Source of the DNA: Octopus vulgaris
Taxonomy: Eukaryota
NCBI GenBank assembly: GCA_951406725.2
Contig: OX597824.1
Coordinates: 65,968,001 to 66,032,000 of the forward strand
Length of the DNA stretch: 64,000 nucleotides
Direction of reading: 5' to 3'
The position numbers and the translations under genes were made by a program. The notes beneath the pieces are model-generated. The model did not search any database. It had not been told where the DNA came from and saw only the letters and a program-made list of their open reading frames with translations. The number at the start of each line of letters is the position of its first letter. Position 1 is the stretch's first letter. Below, piece after piece: positions 2,538 to 50,692 of the stretch.

Positions 2538-2571
2538 CCGGCAGCCGCTCCTGTTGACATGAAAGCAATGA
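2538..2571 (+). CDS. Candidate 34-nt exon (PAAAPVDMKAM), probably of the aftiphilin gene
   Basis: Long pyrimidine tract ...ttctcttgctctttccactttgacAG, GC-rich body, donor A|GTATGT. Only phase 0 is open. Confidence 0.4.
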
Positions 2572-16474: not shown

Positions 16475-17741
16475 TAGGGGTTAGACAAAATAATGGAAAC
16501 ACCTTAAAATTTCAAACAAATTTATTTTAATAGTGAGTAGGACTGCTTTTGACAGTAATTACAGCTTGAATTCTATGAGGTATGGACTTGTACAAAGTTT
16601 GAATTGTTTCCAAACGAATTTTTGTCCATTCTTCAGCTAAAACAGTCTTCAGTTCTTTTAGTGATGATGGTGGAGGATATCGACTCCTTACTTGTTTTTC
16701 TAAAATGCACCATAAATGTTCAATAATATTGAGATCAGGGGACTGTGGTGGCCAGATAAGATGTTCAACTTCACCAGAATGTTCTTCATGCCATTCAGTA
16801 ACAAATTTAGCTGTATGAATTGGTGCATTATCATCCTGAAAGATTGCGTTTCCCTTCAGAAACAGTTCCACAACCATAGGATGAATTTGATCAGATAAAA
16901 TGCTTAAATACTCTTGACTATTAATTCTGCCATGAAGTGAAACCATTGGGCCAGCACATTTCCAAGATATAGTCCCCCAGATCATCACAGATCCTCCTCC
17001 ATGTTTAACAGCTGGAAGAAGGCAGTCTGGGTCAAGTGCTTCTTTTGGCAGTCTCCACATGTATACTCAACCGGTGGTTGGAAATTAAAATTTATTAAAA
17101 TAAGGTAAAGGATGACTTGTCCAGGAAAATAACATTCGTCCACTACTCTAGGGAACGATTCTGTAGGTTTTTACTCAACTCTAAATGCTTTGCAACATTT
17201 GTTTTTGAAAGTAGTGGTTTTCTGATTGCAGTCCTCTCGTGAAATCTGGCTTTGTGCTGTGCCCAGCAAACGGTTTTTGTAGAAACTAGGTTCTCGAGGT
17301 GGTCATTAAGGTCTGCAGTAAGTTTGGGAGCTGTACTTTTGTGATCCTTTCTAACAATTCGCGTAAGAGTCAGACGGTCCTGATCTGAATGATTTGCTTT
17401 TCTTCCAGACTTTTGTTTTGACAAGGAGGTTTTTCCCTCTTTCTCAAAGGCTGTCATTACTTTTGTGACAGTACTTCTTGATACACCAAACATTTCAGCT
17501 GTTTTCATGACGCTGGTGCCTGCTATACAAACATCAACAATTTGACCTCTTTGAAAGTCCGATATATTTGTCATTTTAATGATTTTTCTGATGATATCTG
17601 AAAAGAAACAGCAATTTTAGCAAAACATTAAGCAACACTAATAATAAATCAAAATACATAAAAATAAACAAGCTTTTGACAATTTTATAGATATTTAAAA
17701 ATTATGATGCTAGGTGTTTCCATTATTTTGTCCAATCCTTG
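16475..17741 (-). mobile_element. Tc1-family transposon, DD36E type, full length with disrupted transposase
   Basis: ~29-bp TIRs (consensus CAGGGGTTGGACAAAATAATGGAAACACC) with TA on both sides. HTH ORF 17143-17574 and DDE ORF 16527-17060 (FQDDNAPIH...WPPQSPDLNIIE). Confidence 0.92.
16527..17574 (-). pseudogene. Tc1-like transposase pseudogene
   Basis: Two ORFs separated by a stop/frameshift around the first catalytic D region. Confidence 0.9.
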
Positions 17742-20632: not shown

Positions 20633-22955
20633 TAGGTAGATTGGGAGATAGATAGATACTGTGGTTATACCTAGGCCCTTTTAGTCATATACAAGCTGGA
20701 TTGCAAGATGACTGCAACCATCTGTTATTCTGCATCTTGTGCAGTCAACCATTGAATGGTGGAGTGTGTCTCAGAGTGTTCTAGAAAATGTCTAAAGCCT
20801 GTTGCTTAGTCACACTGTATGTAATCTCTAAGCATTTGCTAAGCTACTAAAGTGTGATGGATCTTATTTATTTCAGAGGTAACCAGAAATATTTAATTTC
20901 AGCAAAATTAATTGCAAGTCTTCAACATCACTATATATTTTATATCATGTATACAAGCCAACATAGGGGAGGTGCTGTCTGGTCACTCAACCTGCTAGAA
21001 ATAGCAGTCAAGTCTCTCTTAAGTCACTCCCTAACATCTTAAAAAGAAAACGGAAGGATATATTTCATAATATAGCTATGCCTGATTCAAAGATGAGATG
21101 GTCATGTTTGCAACAGCTTTGATCATAGAGCTGAGTTAGGGCTAAAAAAAATGTTGAATATTCTTGTTTGGGCACAGGATTTCAGATGGTATGGCCATGG
21201 CTGGAATGCCCTTTAATGTCTGCCTGCTCTAATAAAAGTAACCTAAGGCTAAACAACATTTGCATTTGGTGACACTGGGCCCAGAGCCTTTCATACAAGT
21301 TTTTGTCTGCTTCTTAGGACCACCTTTCTTGTGTTTGGCCCCTGTTGGCATGGAACCCTTCTTTGCCTTCGTCTTTAAAGGTCTTGTTCAAAAATTTACT
21401 TCTGAAATTTTAAGGGAATCTCTATGTAATTGCCTGGGAACATCAGCTAAAATTCTCTCAGATCACATCGTACCATCTTAAAGGATTCCATTGGACAATG
21501 CAGTCCTTAGTATACAAAGCAACTGGATTGTTATAGTTGGAGTGTCTTTCATCATTGGGCTGCTCAGTCAAACTGACCTTGGGTTAAACAACAGCAAAAT
21601 TGTGTCTGTATACACACACACACACACACACACACATACACAAGTCAAAAGCTGTGTTATAGTTGTAAACTCCTCACAGACTAAATCTGCAAATCCTGTT
21701 CAATTCAAAGCGGTGACCTTTTCATTTGGCTTACTATTTTTACTTGTGATTCCCAACGGTCTCCATCAAGTTGATTTGCTCCTCAACACACTAAATGAAA
21801 ACTAAAGTCTTCTGCTAAGACCCAACAACCCATTGAGGAATATGGCAATGTTATCATTTTTCACACTCAGATATCTCAGTCACTTTCACCTCTGACATCT
21901 CACTCTCCAGAATATAGCAACACCAGTTTATTGCAGTTTCTCTCATATGATACTGAATTCTAAAGCCATCCAATTTCTGTAATGAAAAAAATTCATACAG
22001 TAATTTCTGAATTCTAATCCTTTAATTTATTTTTATTATATATGAATTTTTCATTTCATTTCTGTATTTTCCCTTGTAAAGAAGGCTCTACAGATATTCT
22101 TCCATTTTGGTTTTCTTTCATTCTAAATATTTTATATGACTTTATATCTATACAGGATTCAATCTCTAGTTACAGGTGTAGCTGGTGTTGTGTTTATTGT
22201 CTTGCTATAAGTACATTGTTTCCATGTACACTTCCTATAAAACAGATGTCCTCATTTTACCAACCTTAACATTCAGATATGTTAATGTGCCACTATGTAT
22301 CGTGTTTGTGTATGTGTGTATCTAGTTGTGATTCTACAATAATCTTTTTCATCTGTATGAGTTTATTAGTATATTTGAATGTTTTATATTTGGAGGTCTG
22401 TGTTTTGGTTTTGTATATATTTTTGTGAATAGTTTTCTATTTTAGGCTACACTTGTAAAGTCTTTTGTGTGTGTGTGTGTGTACATGTATATGAGGGTGT
22501 GTGTGTGTATATATGTGTATGTGTGTGTGTACATATATGTACACACACATGCACATAATTATGTTTTTCTATGTAAACCCACTTATTTATTTGTGATAGT
22601 GTGTTTTGTATGTGTGCATGTGTGCGTATATGTGTGTAATACATTTATGTGCATGAATCAATTTACATCTTTCAAGTTATTTCTTTGATTACTTTCAGGC
22701 TTTTTTCCTTTTTTTTCCTTCCTATAATCTTTCCTAATTTGATCTTTCTTCATTTCTGTGCACACAGTGGTCCACTCCCTCATAGGACCTGATCCCTTAC
22801 TAATCATTCAGCTGCATATCCCACCGAACATCACAGAGGCACACTGGGCACAACTTGCCATATCTTTGCAGACCTCCCTCAGACCTGTCCCATGTGAATT
22901 CCTCCTTTTGCTTAATGATCTGTCAGCTATTGCTGTTTCTCTTTACTGATTTCAG

Positions 22956-23019
22956 GTTGATATTCCACCTGTGCAGTTTGACTGGACTGGTAGTGGTCTT
23001 ACTAACCCATTAGAGCAAT
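22956..23019 (+). CDS. AFTPH: Aftiphilin coding exon (VDIPPVQFDWTGSGLTNPLEQ), phase 0 to 1
   Basis: Acceptor ttcAG and donor T|GTGAGC. Peptide matches the conserved aftiphilin PPVQFDWxxSGLTNPL motif. Confidence 0.92.
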
Positions 23020-29699: not shown

Positions 29700-32600
29700 T
29701 GTCTCTCCCAAGTATACAATTTTAGGGCTGCAAACATCAATGTTGGCACAATGAAGGAAAGATCTGTTGAGATTGTCGAAATGTTGGAGCGCCATCATGT
29801 CAATGTGTGTGGTCTGCAAGAAGTGAGATGGAAAGGAGCCTCTGCTAGATTCTTCATGGGTAAGAAGCAGAGGTTTTAATTCTTCTGGGTAGGCAGAAGT
29901 GGCGGAGTGGGTGGTGTAGGCATACTCTTAGTGGAAAAGTGGGTAGATAATGTAGTTGAAGTAGTCAGAGTGTGCAATAGGGTTATGAAGTTGAGACATG
30001 AATATATTAACAATTACATTTATCTTTGCCTATGCTCCACAGGCTGAGCTGGCTGATAATCAGAAGGACCAATTCTATGAGGTTCTTTTGCAGACTACCT
30101 CAATGACAAATGACAGAGACTTCATTATTGTGGTTGGCAACTTTAATGGACATGTTGGGCTGCATTCCCATGGATTCCATTGTGTTCATGGTGCTTATGG
30201 CTTTGGCACCAGGAATGAGGAAAGTACAAGGCTACTTGAGTTCTGTGATGCAAATAATCTTATGATTTGCAACACTAACTTTAGAAAGCCAACTAGCCAC
30301 CTAATTACTTATCAGTCTGGTGGAATATAAGCCAGGTTGATTACCTTCTCACCAGGCAAGGAGATAGGCAGATGTTCACAAATGCGAAGTCTTTCTCAGG
30401 TGAAGATTGTACACCCTAACATAGGCTACTAGGTAGTGACTTCAGAATTGGGGCTACAAAGACTCAAAGACATAAACCACATTGGAAAAGAAGATTATGG
30501 AAGTTCAAAGACCCCACAAACCAACACAAATTTAGAGACATTCTACTGGAGGCCTCTGGTGATAGAGAGGAAGAGGAGGAGGAAGGGATATATAGCTTAG
30601 AGGACAACTGGAAGTTGTTGAGGGACAATTTACTGGGTGCTGCTGACCAAATCTGTGGTTGGTGCCAAGTCCCAACCAAATTGTGGGTGACTTGGTGGTG
30701 GAGCTAAAAGGGAGGCTAGGCAACAGGTTTACATAGCTAAAAAAATAGCAGAAGGTAAGAAGTTCACCAATGTTATGCAGTGTGAGGATCAGAGGCATGA
30801 GGTGTTCAGGATTGCAAAGCAGTGTATCAGAGAAAATAGAGATGTGGTAGGTGAGAAATGTGTGCGAATGGATAAAGGTAAGCTTACACTTAGTGACTCA
30901 GAGAAGAAAGATGTGTGGAGATGCCATTATGACAGGTTGTTAAACGTGGAGAATGATTGGGAGGAGTGTCTTTCAAATATTGAACCAGTTGAAGGACCAG
31001 CCATCAGAGTGGATAGCAGTATAATAGATAAGGCAATTAAGAAAATGAAGACTGAGAAAGCCCCAGGACCATCAGGTATCACTGCTGAGATGATTAAAAT
31101 ATCAGGCAGTGTGGGATACAGTCCAGTCACTTGCATAGTTAATCAGGTTATTCAAGAAGGCATCATCCCCAAAGACTGGTGTAGCAGTATTATAGTCAGC
31201 TGCTATATGGGTAAAGGTGGTGCCTTAGATAGAAACAACTACAGAGGTATCAGACTACTTTACCATGTCATGAAAGATACAGAGAGAGTTATATCTCAAC
31301 TAATTAGGGATAGAATTAAACTAGATGAGATGCAGTTTGGTTTTGATCTTGGGAGAAGTACCACAGATGTTGTCTTCATAGTGCGATAGTTGTAAGAAAA
31401 GTATTTGGCCAAAAGTAAGCCATTGTACTTAGTCTTCATCAACCTGGAGGAAGCTTTCGACAGGGTTCATTGCTCTCTTATTTGGTAGTCTCTAGGGAAG
31501 CTAGGAGTAGAGGAGTGGTTTGTTAGTGCAGTTCAAGCCATGTACACAAATGTTATTAGTTAAGATGTGAGTTGGCCTTGAATACAATGATGAATTTAAT
31601 GTACAAGTTAGAGTACACCAGGGATCAGTTCTTAGTCCACTCTTATTTATCATGGTTTTTCAGGCTATAACAGGTGAATTCAAAACTGGATGCCCATGGG
31701 AACTACTATATGCTGATGATCTTGCTCTTATTGCAGAATTTGAAGCAAAATTGGAGAGGAAGTTCCAGGTTTGGAAGCAAAACCTGGAATCAAAGGGCCT
31801 CAAAGTTAACATAGCTAAGACTAAAGTTGATGTTAGTGAGAAAGGAGATAAGACTATCATTCTGGCTGGCAAATGTCCCTGTTCAATATGTAGGCAAGGG
31901 GTGGGATGTAATTCCATTCGCTGTATCAAATGTAAACTATGGCTGCATAAGAGATGCAGTGGAATTGTGGGAAGGTTATCAGATAAGGTTATTTTCATGT
32001 GTGGTAGATGCGCAGGAACAGAAGGCACTAAGAGCACAAGGGACTTAAACTCCCTCAAATGCCCAGGAGGCTCTCTTGAGGTAGTAGATAATTTCTGCTA
32101 TTTAGGCGACCAAATTAGTAATGGTGGTGGATACTCTGAAAATATTGTTTCTAGAATACAAATAGAGTGGAGGAAATTCAGCGAACTACTACCTCTGTTG
32201 GCAGCAAAAGGACTCTCTCTTAGAGTGAAAGGTAGATTGTATGATGCTTGTGTGAAAATAACTACATTATGTGGGCTCTGACTACAGAGGACAAATGTAG
32301 ACTGGAGCGGAATGAAGGTAGTATGCTGTGTTGGATTTGCAACATCAGTAAGCATGACTGACAAAGCACAACTGTGTTGAGAGAAAAGTTAGGCATAAGA
32401 GGAATTAAATGTGGTATATAGGAGAGGTGACTGCATTGGTTTGGATATGTGAATGCATATGAGTGAAGACACTGTATACAGATGTGCCTGTTGTTGAAAA
32501 GGATGGTATCTGTGGAAGAGGGAGACCCAGGAAGATAAGGGATGAAGTGGTGAGGACTGCTTTTAGGATGTTTGGGCTCATGGAGGAAGTTACAGTGGAC

Positions 32601-37147: not shown

Positions 37148-37228
37148 CGGCAGCATCGGCAAATACTTTGGACTTGGACTTCCTTGTGGTGAAAGACTCT
37201 CCTGAAACTACGATATCAAAAACTGGAG
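37148..37228 (+). CDS. AFTPH: Aftiphilin coding exon ((S)AASANTLDLDFLVVKDSPETTISKTG), 81 nt, phase 1 to 1, clathrin-box-like LDLD
   Basis: Acceptor ttttcAG and donor G|GTTAGT. In frame with both neighbouring exons. TLDLDF corresponds to vertebrate LLNLDF. Confidence 0.88.
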
Positions 37229-41215: not shown

Positions 41216-42087
41216 CGGGGTGCGATGTGTAAATTGTCACCATTTTGTATTTTTAATTTCATGCATGCTCATTGTTTGTTTTTGATTTTGTCGACTACAC
41301 AGTATAGTAGGGTCAGTTGGGTACCATCTGTGAGAAAAACAGCTCCACGACACAATTCACTCTGCCAGAAATTTGGAAACAACATGCTGTACTACTTGGC
41401 ATTTGCGTTCGAAGCTCCAATACAAACATTTCAGAGTATTTGGGTGTCAATCTGAGGACAGTGTGATCTGCAGACATGTACCAACAGTGATAAAAATCAA
41501 ACATCCAGTCAACATCATGGTGTTTGGAGTAATCACTAGTGATGGCAATGTTATGCTTCCAGTCATCTTCCTATGTGGCCTCAGACTCAGCATGGAGGCC
41601 TACATCAAGTGCCTGCCCTGGGTGAAGAGGATGGCTGCTAGACAACCCTATGTCTAGCAACAGGACACTGCCATACCACACAAGCAGGAGAAACCAGTTA
41701 TGGCTGTCAGACAATTCCTGCAACCACATCACCCCTAACATCTGGCCAGCTAACTCCCCAGACTGCAACCCCCTTGATTATTATGTGTGGGGCACAGTTA
41801 AGCGAGAGACCAACAAACCTCCTTGTAACACCAAAGATAAAGTGAAGGTAAGGATTATGGTAGCATTCACCAACTTAAACAAGGAGACCAGCCAGAAGGG
41901 TTGCAGGAGATTCTGAAGTTCTCTGGAGGCCATGGTTGAAGCCAATGGCGATTTTATTGAATGAATTTACTCTTTAGTATTTCAAGATATTTTTATGTAA
42001 TTTAGGTAAATATATCTGTTAAAACGAGATGTCAGTGTTATTTTCATTTTTGCGTAATTTATATGACAGTTTATTCACCACACCCTG
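41216..42087 (+). mobile_element. Internally deleted DD37D (maT-like) transposon
   Basis: TIRs C(G/A)GGGTG(C/T)G(A/G)TG..TAAA(T/C)TGTCA with TA flanks. Remnant KHPVNIMVFG...QQD...WPANSPDCNPLDYYVWG. Confidence 0.85.
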
Positions 42088-42986: not shown

Positions 42987-44066
42987 ATTATAAAGGCACG
43001 AACATCTCAGTTTCACATAGACACACACTCATATGATAGATCTTAGTTGAGTGGATTCTTGCAATGTTTGATTGAGGACTGAAGCAGTCTTTATGGAGTA
43101 GACAGCTAAAAGTGAGAACGTGGTGCAACAGGAATTTACTGGTGAGCATATCACTTAATGGATGTGAAGTATTAGCATTTTCTTCAATATGTTTAATATG
43201 ATGATTGTAAGAGAAGCAAATAAAAGAATCTGACAAAATTGTAATTAACTGTTTGGGTGGTGTATCAGTAAAATCATAAGTACTGGATAAAATGCCTTGT
43301 GGCATTTAGTTATGATCCATTAGGTTTTAAATCAAGTTTCTGTTGAGATCAATCTTATCCTTCACCCCCACCCCCACCCCAACATCAATAAAATAAAGGG
43401 CCAGTCAAGAGCTGAGATAGATTTAATCTCAGGGATTTTTGCCAATGTTAGAATTCAAAGCTACTATTATCTGAAAGGCAATGAGGTGGCAGAATTGTTA
43501 GCATTCTGGGCAAAATGCATAATGACATTTCGTCCATCTTTACATTCTCTGTTCAAATTCCGCCTAGGTTGACTTTGCCTTTCATCCTTTCAGGGTCGAT
43601 AAAATAAGTACCAGTCAAGCACTTGGGTCAGTGTAATTTACTTACCCCTTCCCTGAATTTGAAACCAAAATTATGATTATCTGTGCCAGAAGAAAAGAAA
43701 ATATATTGAAAAGTGTGTGCGGTTTGAACAAAGGGATGTTGGACCTTATAGTCAGTGTCATGTAGGACTGAGGTAAATGGCAATATACAACTTGCAGACA
43801 TGTCAAAACTATGATGCCACCTATTGCAAAACAAACATGAGACATTATGATTGATGTTTGAATTTATGATATCTGAGAGAGAAAAAAAGGAAAAATTACA
43901 AACACATTTTGGTTCACTGTGTGAATGTTTGCTAATTTCATCATAAATTTAATTTGTCCTTATGATACTATATTGAGCTTTCTGGAATTAAACATCCAAG
44001 TATTTTGATTGTTTGTCAAATCAATAATCCTTTTACTGAATTCACCTTATTTTCCCTCCATCCCAG

Positions 44067-44081
44067 ATGACCTGGACTGGG
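44067..44081 (+). CDS. AFTPH: Candidate 15-nt frame-preserving aftiphilin microexon (adds DDLDW)
   Basis: ttcaccttattttccctccatcccAG|ATGACCTGGACTGGG|GTAAGG. Phase 1 to 1 fits between the exons at 37148 and 50466. Confidence 0.7.
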
Positions 44082-45729
44082 GTAAGGATCCTCTGCTTGA
44101 TTTCTCATTCTCCTTCATTTCTTTATTTCTGATCTTAACTCACTTGAGAAACCTGTTCTGCTTGTCACTCAAGTAATTTCTTTATGTGTATGTGTGTGTA
44201 TATAATATGTGTGTGCGTGCGTGAGTGTGTGTGTGTGTAATTATAAACAGTTAGCTTACTGCTCTTAACTCAATTCAGTGTGAACACCTTGCATGCTGGT
44301 TTGGTTGATTGTGACTTCTTCAGGCTTTCCATTGCATAATGCATGTGAATGAGGTTTATTTGTTGCCTTCAGATTGTGTTCAACAGAATTCTAGGGAAAA
44401 AATACTTCTAAGTTTTGTTTTGGAAAATGGTGATAAGATAAACCTTGGGTTTTTTAAAAGGTTAACTTGGTGGGATTTTTTGAAACTTTCATTTGGTATT
44501 CTTTTTTCAGTTTCATTTTTGAAGAGTAATTATAAATTCTTTTTATCAAATGCTAATTTTTTAAGACAGTACAGTTTTTAGGTTAGTTTATGAAGTGAAT
44601 TATATAGTAGCCACAGTTTTTTGTATACATATGTTCCACAATACTTGTCAGATGTGGTTAGACCTACTTAAGAGCCTGATAGATGATCTTTTGATGTTTC
44701 AAAAAGCCATAGAGAAAAATTTAGACACAAAGTCGTTGGCCAGTTTTGCTTATGTACAACTACATTTATGTTGTATATAATTAAATGAACAGAATAGTCA
44801 TTGTGTGTCTCTAGCAAAAGCCATTCTGTTTTTTGCTGTGGGAAATGTCCTAATTAAAAAAAAATATGCTAAAATAACCATTTTGATATCAACCCTCCTG
44901 AGACCCTGCTTTGATTCTGTGATTCAAAAATGCCTCTTTTAATGAGCTTTACTTAAATCAAAATCTCTTATTACAATTTTATGTAAGAACCTTTTGTTTA
45001 TAAACAGTTTTAATAATAATTATAATAATAATAATAAAAGTTAGTTTATTAAATTTCTCCAAATTCTTGATTATTTTCAATTTTAATTCAAACACATGAG
45101 CAGAAATTTCATTAGAAATATCGCAGAAAAAGAAAAATGGTTAAAGACAATGGGTAAGATATTGAAGGAAGTTTTTCTGTTGAGTGCCTACAAAGAGATT
45201 CCTCACTGAATCCTATGGTTATGATTTAAAAAATGGGAAATGTATTTGTTGAGAGAGATTTGACTGCTGCTTAGAACAGTCTGACTACATATTATCCTTC
45301 TTGCTTGTTTTTATGGTCTTGATTTTTAAAACATCACTAAATTTTATTGAGGTTGATTTAATTTTGATATTGACCAATTTAATTATGAAAAGAATTCCCT
45401 CCTTGACTCATATAATCGCTATTTTAAAGCTATTAGAACATTTTCTAAAAAGCTTTGACTTCTATATTGAACATGCCAAATGACTCAGTAAGCTGGCTTA
45501 TTGATTTTGAGATTTTTTTTCTCGTTGAGAATCTCTCTGTTATCTTACAGTTTGTTCAAGGTCAGAACATACTTCTACCTACTCTTTACAGAGTTTAGAT
45601 CTCTCTCAGAGAAAAAGATCAACTGACTAATTGGCATGAAGTCACTGGCCAGTGTACTCCAACGTCTAGCCCACAGATGTGTTGTCCCTTCACTACACTA
45701 TTTCTACTAGTATTACCACAGTGATTACA

Positions 45730-45995
45730 GGGTCGGGTTTACAATCATGAGGTAGTGAGTTTGACTCCTGGAACAAGCTGTGTGTTGTGCTCTTGAGCAA
45801 GACACTTTATTTTGTGTTGCTCCAGTTCACTCAGCTGTAGAAATGAGTTGCAACATCACTGCTGTGGAGAGGGGAGGCTGGTATGTATGGGCGACTGCTG
45901 GTCTTCCATAAACAACCTTGCTTGTACTTGTGCCTCAGAGGGTAACTTTCTAGATGCAATCCCATGGTCATTCTTGATTGAAGAGCATCTTTACC
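45730..45995 (+). mobile_element. tRNA-derived SINE (V/Deu-like core TTGAGCAAGACACTT)
   Basis: B-box-like GAGTTTGACTCC; core GTTGTGCTCTTGAGCAAGACACTT. Confidence 0.6.
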
Positions 45996-46654
45996 TTACC
46001 TTTTACTACAGTGGCCTCTGTTTTTCAGAGTTAGTTGCTTTTGTGCCATTTTCCTCCTAACCTTACTGGCTTGCTCTTTGTCTCTCCCCCTCCCCCTGCA
46101 CCCCCCTACACTGACAGTATTACAAATATAAAAAGAAATAATTGCAACATATAGGGAATTAAAATCAGGCTATTATCATCACCAACATTATCATTTTTAC
46201 AACTGCAAAAGTGAGCAATAAGCATGGAAAAGTAACTGTAAAAATGATGATGGTAGTGATGATGGTGGTGAGTTGGCAGAATTGTTAGCATGCTGGACAG
46301 AATGCTTTGAGCCTCTGGCTTTATATGAGTTCGAATTCTACTTTGGTGAATTTTGCCTTTCATCAATGTAATTGACTGGCCCTCCCTACTAAAAAGTTTC
46401 AGGCCTTGTACCTATAGTAGAAAGGATTTATCATCATCATCATCATTAAGGTGGCAAATTGATAGAATTATTAGCACATCAGACAAAATGCTCAGTGACA
46501 TCTCTTTCAATTCTTTATGTTCTGAGTTCAAATTCTGCTAAGGTTGACTTTACCTTCATCCTTTTGGGGTTGATACCACTTTGGTTATCAATGCAATTGA
46601 TTAACATCTTTCCTATAAAACCACTAGCCTTGTGCTAAAATTTTTATTATTATT

Positions 46655-50465: not shown

Positions 50466-50692
50466 TGTTTGAGTCCGAACTGCTAGGTGGCCCTTTGAAG
50501 CCATTACCTTCTTTCAAGCCAATGCAGCCCCTTGAGGACATGTTAGCCAACACCAAGTCGACGACCGTGAAGAGAGGACACACATCAGATGAGCACTTGA
50601 GTCAGGAAGCTACTGTAATACTGCAGACTCTTCCTGATTTGTCTTTCATGCACGCTAAAGTTTTGATGTTTCCAGTACGTCAGACTAACTAA
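50466..50692 (+). CDS. AFTPH: Aftiphilin terminal coding exon (...EHLSQEATVILQTLPDLSFMHAKVLMFPVRQTN*)
   Basis: Long pyrimidine tract plus tttAG. EHLSxEA...LPDLxFMHAKVLMFP is the aftiphilin C-terminal signature. Phase 1 fits the upstream exons. Confidence 0.95.

Follow-up and report, generated by a model that had tools for sequence, protein, structure and literature searches.

The 15-nt block at positions 44067-44081, in the last intron of the aftiphilin gene of Octopus vulgaris, is a real and ancient molluscan microexon, apparently the counterpart of an in-frame insert that reads DEWDW at the same junction in gastropods and bivalves. Judging from its intact splice sites, frame and relatives, it is very probably still spliced in octopus, where it would add the residues DDLDW to the C-terminal tail of the protein.

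The stretch of DNA that was analysed (the window, 64 kb) takes in the gene's 3' end, on the + strand, as determined by exon matching to the O. sinensis protein P0002. This protein harbors a PF15045 (Clba) domain, and its relatives across animals are named aftiphilin. Its exons at 22956-23019 and 37148-37228 were located in the window by tblastn, and the last exon is 100% identical to it. All three window exons that flank the candidate match P0002, in which 37228 is spliced directly to 50466 and the candidate is left out. None of four window peptides matched Pfam, the PF15045 region being upstream of the window; it is through the PF15045 homologues and the identity of the last exon that the gene is recognized as aftiphilin, the name given to it in the original prediction. 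The octopus record that skips the block is labelled 'isoform X2', and an isoform X1 with the insert may therefore exist. The features discussed below are collected in Table 1.

Table 1. Exons and candidate regulatory elements of the aftiphilin tail in the window (feature; position; strand; evidence)
15-nt cassette microexon, phase 1-1, DDLDW, putative ortholog of molluscan DEWDW	44067..44081	+	sites, frame, chance controls, orthologous insert in 10 mollusc records
3' splice region with pyrimidine tract and CAG; AG exclusion zone of 64 nt; nearest upstream UGC at -137	44001..44066	+	
5' splice site GTAAGG; read-through in frame gives GK, cf. limpet-like P0130 (DEWDW-GK...)	44082..44087	+	
Two TGCATG (Rbfox-type) hexamers at +209 and +259 relative to the microexon; possible intronic enhancers on weak evidence	44290..44345	+	
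Upstream 81-nt exon, phase 1-1, LDLDF segment; skipped in several homologues	37148..37228	+	
Last aftiphilin exon, coding part (VFESELL...RQTN, stop); V-F completes the motif	50466..50692	+	
Aftiphilin exon VDIPPVQFDW...LEQ, phase 0-1	22956..23019	+	
34-nt exon encoding PAAAPVDMKAM, phase 0-1; likely forms a mutually exclusive pair with 22956-23019	2538..2571	+	7/9 identical to cuttlefish P0003 segment

The acceptor of the microexon consists of a tract with pyrimidines at 15 of 17 positions followed by CAG, and its donor reads G/GTAAGG, which bears out the tract, the splice sites and the phase that had been read from the sequence at the outset. Its AG exclusion zone of 64 nt compares with zones of 27, 36 and 58 nt at the other three acceptors. 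The upstream exon ends in phase 1 with the donor GTTAGT, and scripted joining yielded TISKTG-VFESELLG when the block was skipped and TISKTG-DDLDW-VFESELLG when it was included, with the frame kept. The RNA-seq probe given in the original prediction is correctly assembled. The block is thus very short, a multiple of three in length, bounded by canonical AG and GT, open in frame and of the right phase, all of which characterize microexons, and it lies between introns of 6838 and 6384 nt. Its surroundings had been described as largely devoid of transposable elements, and it indeed sits in a 2600-nt stretch (43664-46263), the fifth longest of its kind, without any repeat copied elsewhere in the window, as seen by a test that detects only repeats occurring at least twice there. 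An Rfam search of 43000-46500 returned only two plant-type miRNA matches near 46170, both sub-threshold and rejected as chance. Two copies of a short element, TCTTAACTCA, lie in the intron (44130-44142 and 44260-44272), just 3' of the microexon and 5' of the UGCAUG pair. Mobile-element remnants are found at 29995-32278 (+), 16530-17616 (-) and 41334-41913 (+) within introns; from their translations we take them to be a LINE-like reverse transcriptase (YADD) and fragments of Tc1/mariner-like transposase.

How readily a block of this kind might arise by chance was assessed within the 13.2-kb intron. Its in-frame AG..GT blocks of 3-30 nt number 421, and 325 of these are stop-free. Only five of the short AG..GT blocks combine YAG with a good tract and a fair donor, and 44067-44081 is among them. 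It scores 23 against DEWDW (BLOSUM62), and the runner-up among the 39 stop-free blocks of 15 nt scores 3; in a simulation without a splice-strength filter, 4 of 1500 Markov-simulated introns reached 23 or more. From the rarity of such a resemblance, and from the fact that no other stop-free 15-nt block of the intron resembles DEWDW, we conclude by sequence comparison that the exon is orthologous to the molluscan insert and has been under selection in the octopus line.

A search with residues 725-948 of P0002 gave 113 proteins; 31 proteins were aligned, and all those gathered by then were scanned for the motif. The insert was found at exactly the same junction in six of the scanned proteins, as DEWDW in Pecten maximus X3, Argopecten irradians X3, Aplysia californica X2, Pomacea canaliculata X3 and P0035, and as EWDW in Saccostrea echinata. 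A second search, of 50%-identity representatives, listed 150 matches, 128 of which were new; 20 vertebrate-like rows were left out, and four of the 108 examined (P0117, P0121, P0127 and P0130) also carry DEWDW. No DEWDW-type insert was present in any vertebrate record among the proteins scanned for the motif. When the rows, each a single isoform, were placed by a 49-row tree of hand-picked invertebrate sequences, the insert was found in 6/16 gastropods, 4/10 pteriomorph bivalves, 0/6 other bivalves and 0/5 cephalopods. The gastropod carriers span the limpet, caenogastropod and heterobranch branches, and the chiton row, also one isoform, is without the insert. Because a cluster row represents one isoform, absence from a row does not mean loss. 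Conservation among molluscs, which had been proposed as a check on the exon, is seen in gastropod and pteriomorph bivalve records, and the five cephalopod records skip the exon. The idea that the exon is unannotated has become doubtful, since the orthologous insert is present in the gene models that NCBI derived automatically for Pecten, Argopecten, Aplysia, Pomacea and Saccostrea echinata.

Across gastropod and bivalve records, both inclusion and skipping are observed. Sister rows differ in this respect, as for Pecten, Argopecten and P0117, which have the insert, and Ylistrum, which skips it, for S. echinata and S. cucullata, and for P0130 and Patella X2; such opposite states in close relatives among scallops, oysters and limpets are as expected for a cassette. 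P0127 reads LTNPLT-DEWDW-VFK, with the insert present and the 81-nt upstream exon absent, which indicates that the insert is a separate exon. P0130 ends in DEWDW-GKIFML, corresponding to read-through of the same G/GTAAR donor, and the equivalent read-through in the window would give DDLDW-GK. The independence of the exon is thus seen in its flanking introns of 6.8 kb and 6.4 kb, in its inclusion alone in P0127 and in the donor read-through of P0130.

Compared with DEWDW, three of the five octopus residues are identical and one is conservative, and the first W is replaced by L. The tetrapeptide D-W-V-F, of which the last exon supplies V-F, is invariant in the nine in-frame carriers and in octopus. 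W-x-F occurs in all of these, and W-x-W only outside cephalopods. In the bivalve rows P0031, P0037, P0045, P0118, P0125 and P0126 and in Mytilus P0247, the last exon begins without V-F (ALE, LES or AF) and none shows the insert, a hint at joint loss of the motif and, perhaps, of the microexon. A distant aftiphilin-like protein, P0239 (1225 aa), contains DEFDEWEYW at a similar distance past its LDL segment.

Neural microexons of the eMIC type fall in a size class of 3-27 nt, to which the aftiphilin exon conforms. Like those controlled by eMIC/SRRM3/4 across bilaterians, as described in the available parts of two studies (PMC8797185; bioRxiv 10.64898/2026.09.05.749416), it preserves the frame, its pyrimidine tract and AG exclusion zone are long, and it is inserted where an intracellular trafficking gene encodes an interaction region predicted to be disordered. 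The eMIC targets of flies and mammals are reported to combine a long AG exclusion zone, UGC near the acceptor, a long pyrimidine tract and a strong branch point (PMC8797185, in part). The first and third of these are present here; on the other hand, no UGC lies close to the 3' splice site, the nearest upstream TGC being at -137, and no CUAAY is found closer than -135 to the acceptor, so that the eMIC code is followed in part only. The proximity of UGC is an enrichment in the same excerpts rather than an absolute rule (PMC8797185). The octopus exon also differs from the eMIC type in that its conservation spans molluscan classes, which the eMIC studies have not sampled, octopus being the only mollusc among the species listed in the preprint (bioRxiv 10.64898/2026.09.05.749416).

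The two TGCATG hexamers are where the original prediction had placed them. The window contains 53 such hexamers on the + strand and 35 on the - strand, and at least two of them occur in 253 of 6370 sliding 300-nt windows (4.0%), which makes the pair weak evidence for regulation by Rbfox. MBNL-type YGCY and CU-rich elements are also present 3' of the microexon. By analogy with its class, neural-enriched inclusion is the likeliest pattern and a somewhat favored one. It is possible, if rather unlikely, that the cassette is real and conserved, as we propose, but regulated in a non-neural manner, in muscle, gonad or secretory epithelium, or else weakly included in all tissues. The missing UGC hallmark, the downstream YGCY and CU-rich elements and the inclusion seen in bivalve gene models would fit such regulation, against which stand the size and the long AG exclusion zone, both typical of neural microexons, and the tendency of deeply conserved neural exons to be short, according to the accessible portion of the preprint (bioRxiv 10.64898/2026.09.05.749416).

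The AlphaFold2 model of the Aplysia protein P0046, computed from a 37-row alignment, is of low confidence overall (mean pLDDT 44, pTM 0.27) and served only to judge the local structure at the insert. The insert is modelled as coil, preceded by a short helix (869-872) and followed by the C-terminal helices, which start at 922, with pLDDT below 50 for residues 891-901 and a mean of 52 for 901-910; this is consistent with a linear motif, albeit as weak evidence. A PDB sequence search with P0046 gave no match. Helices that bind HEATR5 have been predicted around the Clba domain (PMC10798858, in part), and this domain is located upstream of the insert.

The binding motifs considered were approximate consensus forms. 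By these, gamma-ear, WxxF-acidic, clathrin-box, W-box, KLC W-acidic, DPF/W and FxDxF patterns are matched by none of the nine in-frame carriers, nor by octopus. An acidic di-aromatic pattern of the delta-COP type, also approximate and degenerate, fits all nine as well as the octopus inclusion form and is absent from the skipped junction; of the patterns tested, it alone fits both octopus and the other molluscs. The same degenerate pattern matches P0002 at six overlapping places, in three N-terminal sites. A D[DE]W acidic-Trp pattern, of the Arp2/3 type, matches eight of the nine carriers and not octopus. The delta-COP di-Trp motif, in the approximate form used here, comprises one or more acidic residues, W, 1-6 residues, and W or F. 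The insert shares with this motif (ELM LIG_deltaCOP1_diTrp_1; WxW in Dsl1, WxxF in Gcs1/ArfGAP1) a Trp and a second aromatic residue in an acidic, unstructured context. It differs from the known ligands in that aftiphilin is an AP-1/HEATR5 cofactor and not a known COPI partner, and in that octopus has W-x-F only. Acidic Trp motifs of the WxW and WxxF kinds bind the mu-homology domain of delta-COP, as stated in the consulted parts of PMC7145657, PMC4868844 and PMC6737914, and no paper linking aftiphilin to COPI was found in the literature examined. That the insert acts as a docking motif for a coat or an adaptor is probable on these grounds. That its partner is of the delta-COP or mu-homology type seems unlikely enough to be offered only as a lead, the pattern being degenerate.

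The original prediction had the insert tuning the binding of AP-1, AP-2 and clathrin. Its recognition by the canonical AP-1 gamma-ear, WxxF-acidic or clathrin-box patterns, in approximate form, finds no support in the nine carriers or in octopus, and P0002 already possesses six gamma-ear-like and four W-x-x-F sites by such patterns. Taken to mean an Rbfox-driven neural microexon whose acidic-aromatic motif, of a non-canonical kind, strengthens binding to the ear domains of AP-1 or AP-2 or to clathrin's terminal domain, this proposal must also face the W-box, DPF/W and FxDxF mismatches, and we regard it as unlikely. It gains from the facts that aftiphilin binds AP-1 and occurs with AP-2 appendages (PMC10798858, PMC1540706, both in part), that the insert lies about 15 residues past the clathrin-box-like LDLDF segment and that two UGCAUG are present downstream; furthermore, the available part of PMC1540706 cautions against deducing appendage motifs from how well a binding site is conserved.

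Improbable for its part is an ATG8-binding LIR, formed by W-D-W-V after acidic residues, that would link aftiphilin carriers to autophagy and would be weakened or lost in octopus. The LIR core, [WFY]xx[LIV] after acidic residues or S/T, is completed across the junction in all nine gastropod and bivalve carriers. Octopus fails the pattern with an L at the aromatic position, though it keeps D-W-V-F; the pattern also matches P0002 nine times elsewhere, and no paper joining AFTPH, LIR and LC3 was found.

Whether the exon is still in use in the octopus line has to be weighed against the cephalopod records. All five that span the junction (P0002, P0003, P0004, P0245 and P0246) skip it, and a search of short proteins for cephalopod fragments gave eight matches among 66 candidates, of which both junction-spanning ones skip and one enters the intron. 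These records, together with the replacement of the first W by L, are what a relic would predict, that is, an ancestral microexon no longer spliced in cephalopods. The molluscan classes are dated to a split in the Cambrian, and in unselected intron DNA the length, the phase, the splice sites at either end and four of five residues would not have stayed intact since then; the cephalopod records, moreover, are cluster representatives with a single isoform each. Such a relic is therefore highly improbable. That 44067-44081 is nothing but a chance AG..GT block, for which the 325 stop-free blocks of the intron leave room, is effectively refuted already, by its having been named before any homologue was seen, by its place as the one block in 39 resembling DEWDW and one of five with good splice sites, and by the simulations.

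The explanation that we propose, to which we give even chances as a whole, is that the block is spliced into octopus aftiphilin as a cassette microexon, the ortholog of DEWDW, that it is probably included in nervous tissue, and that it would there offer a vesicle-coat protein an acidic-tryptophan motif on which to dock. Its foundation is the frame, the splice sites and the orthologous cassette in other molluscs. In octopus the microexon would remain in use and its skipping would be the default form, as in 5/5 cephalopod records; it would be defined by a good donor and a long pyrimidine tract free of AG, and the downstream UGCAUG, YGCY and CU elements might gate it by tissue. The insert is predicted to lie in a low-confidence coil that follows the LDLDF segment and precedes the helices of the C-terminus, where together with the V-F of the last exon it would form D-x-[W/L]-D-W-V-F. 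This acidic di-aromatic motif might then plug into the hydrophobic pocket of a coat domain. The closest pattern is the di-tryptophan type bound by delta-COP mu-homology, and not the gamma-ear or WxxF sites, of which aftiphilin already has several copies in its N-terminal part, so that inclusion would give this HEATR5/AP-1 cofactor a new partner rather than an extra site of an old kind. The fullest version of the scheme is a long shot: a neuron-specific microexon retained ever since cephalopods, gastropods and bivalves shared an ancestor, operating without the UGC/eMIC signature (for instance through Rbfox), would switch aftiphilin to a second coat, namely the COPI delta-subunit or another mu-homology domain; in starfish, a Trp microexon of another sequence would have arisen in this intron, and cephalopods would have converted W-x-W to W-x-F.

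Other cassettes are found in the same part of the gene. Amphibian, echinoderm and mollusc records (P0005/P0006, P0047/P0048, P0126, P0147, P0154 and P0155) differ in whether they contain the 81-nt LDLDF exon, suggesting that it may be a very old cassette and the aftiphilin tail a splicing hotspot. In mouse, exon 8 of Aftph is an 81-nt cassette of unknown function (PMC4601534, in part), and a rhythmic skipped-exon event has been reported for the gene (PMC12705855, in part). The vertebrate cassette resembles the microexon in being an alternatively spliced element of the C-terminal tail, and the amphibian LNLDF exon, in P0006 and out of P0005, aligns with the window exon 37148-37228; from length and alignment, mouse exon 8 probably corresponds to this upstream exon and is thus a neighbor of the microexon, not the microexon itself. 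In starfish aftiphilin, the last intron holds a different cassette, of six residues (GWFRRK), which is found both together with the LNLD exon and in its absence (P0047, P0048, P0194 and P0079; Asterias rubens X1 vs. X3). It likewise contains a Trp and is independent of the LNLD exon, but it is basic where the molluscan insert is acidic and 18 nt long instead of 15, and the two are probably convergent.

Further upstream, 2538-2571 (+) and 22956-23019 (+) form a pair of exons that both run from phase 0 to 1, and PAAAPVDMKAM matches the segment of cuttlefish P0003 that replaces the conserved FDW...LTNPL exon. The two exons are likely mutually exclusive, and if so, one isoform would drop the most conserved motif of the tail, the FDW exon. 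At 22768-22893 (+), 62 nt upstream of the FDW exon, lies a 126-nt open block of phase 1-1 with 52% GC and AG/GT ends. Its phase is compatible with a position after the 2538 exon and incompatible with one before the FDW exon, and this candidate exon had no homologue among the mollusc-like proteins tested.

Microexon programmes have been mapped in vertebrates and insects. Deep conservation appears to be rare, with four exons at equivalent positions in fly and mammal in the portion of PMC8797185 consulted and two bilaterian-ancestral microexons reported in that of the preprint (bioRxiv 10.64898/2026.09.05.749416). The preprint, of 2026, includes O. bimaculoides, and the part of its main text consulted contains no mention of AFTPH or aftiphilin; its supplementary exon tables may list this exon. 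Aftiphilin is not named in the parts of the main text of PMC8797185 examined either. No paper on an aftiphilin microexon was found, in a search mostly outside subscription literature, nor anything on molluscan microexons in the literature examined, and no mollusc study was among the aftiphilin papers listed, by title or abstract start. The molluscan microexon is therefore implicit in the automated gene models of five named species and undescribed in the papers found. As a cassette kept in three molluscan classes, it offers a ready marker for a molluscan microexon programme. In mouse, the isoforms of the aftiphilin tail have no known function, as far as the available part of PMC4601534 goes, and the microexon points to an uncharacterised candidate binding site in a tail that is alternatively spliced from molluscs to mice.
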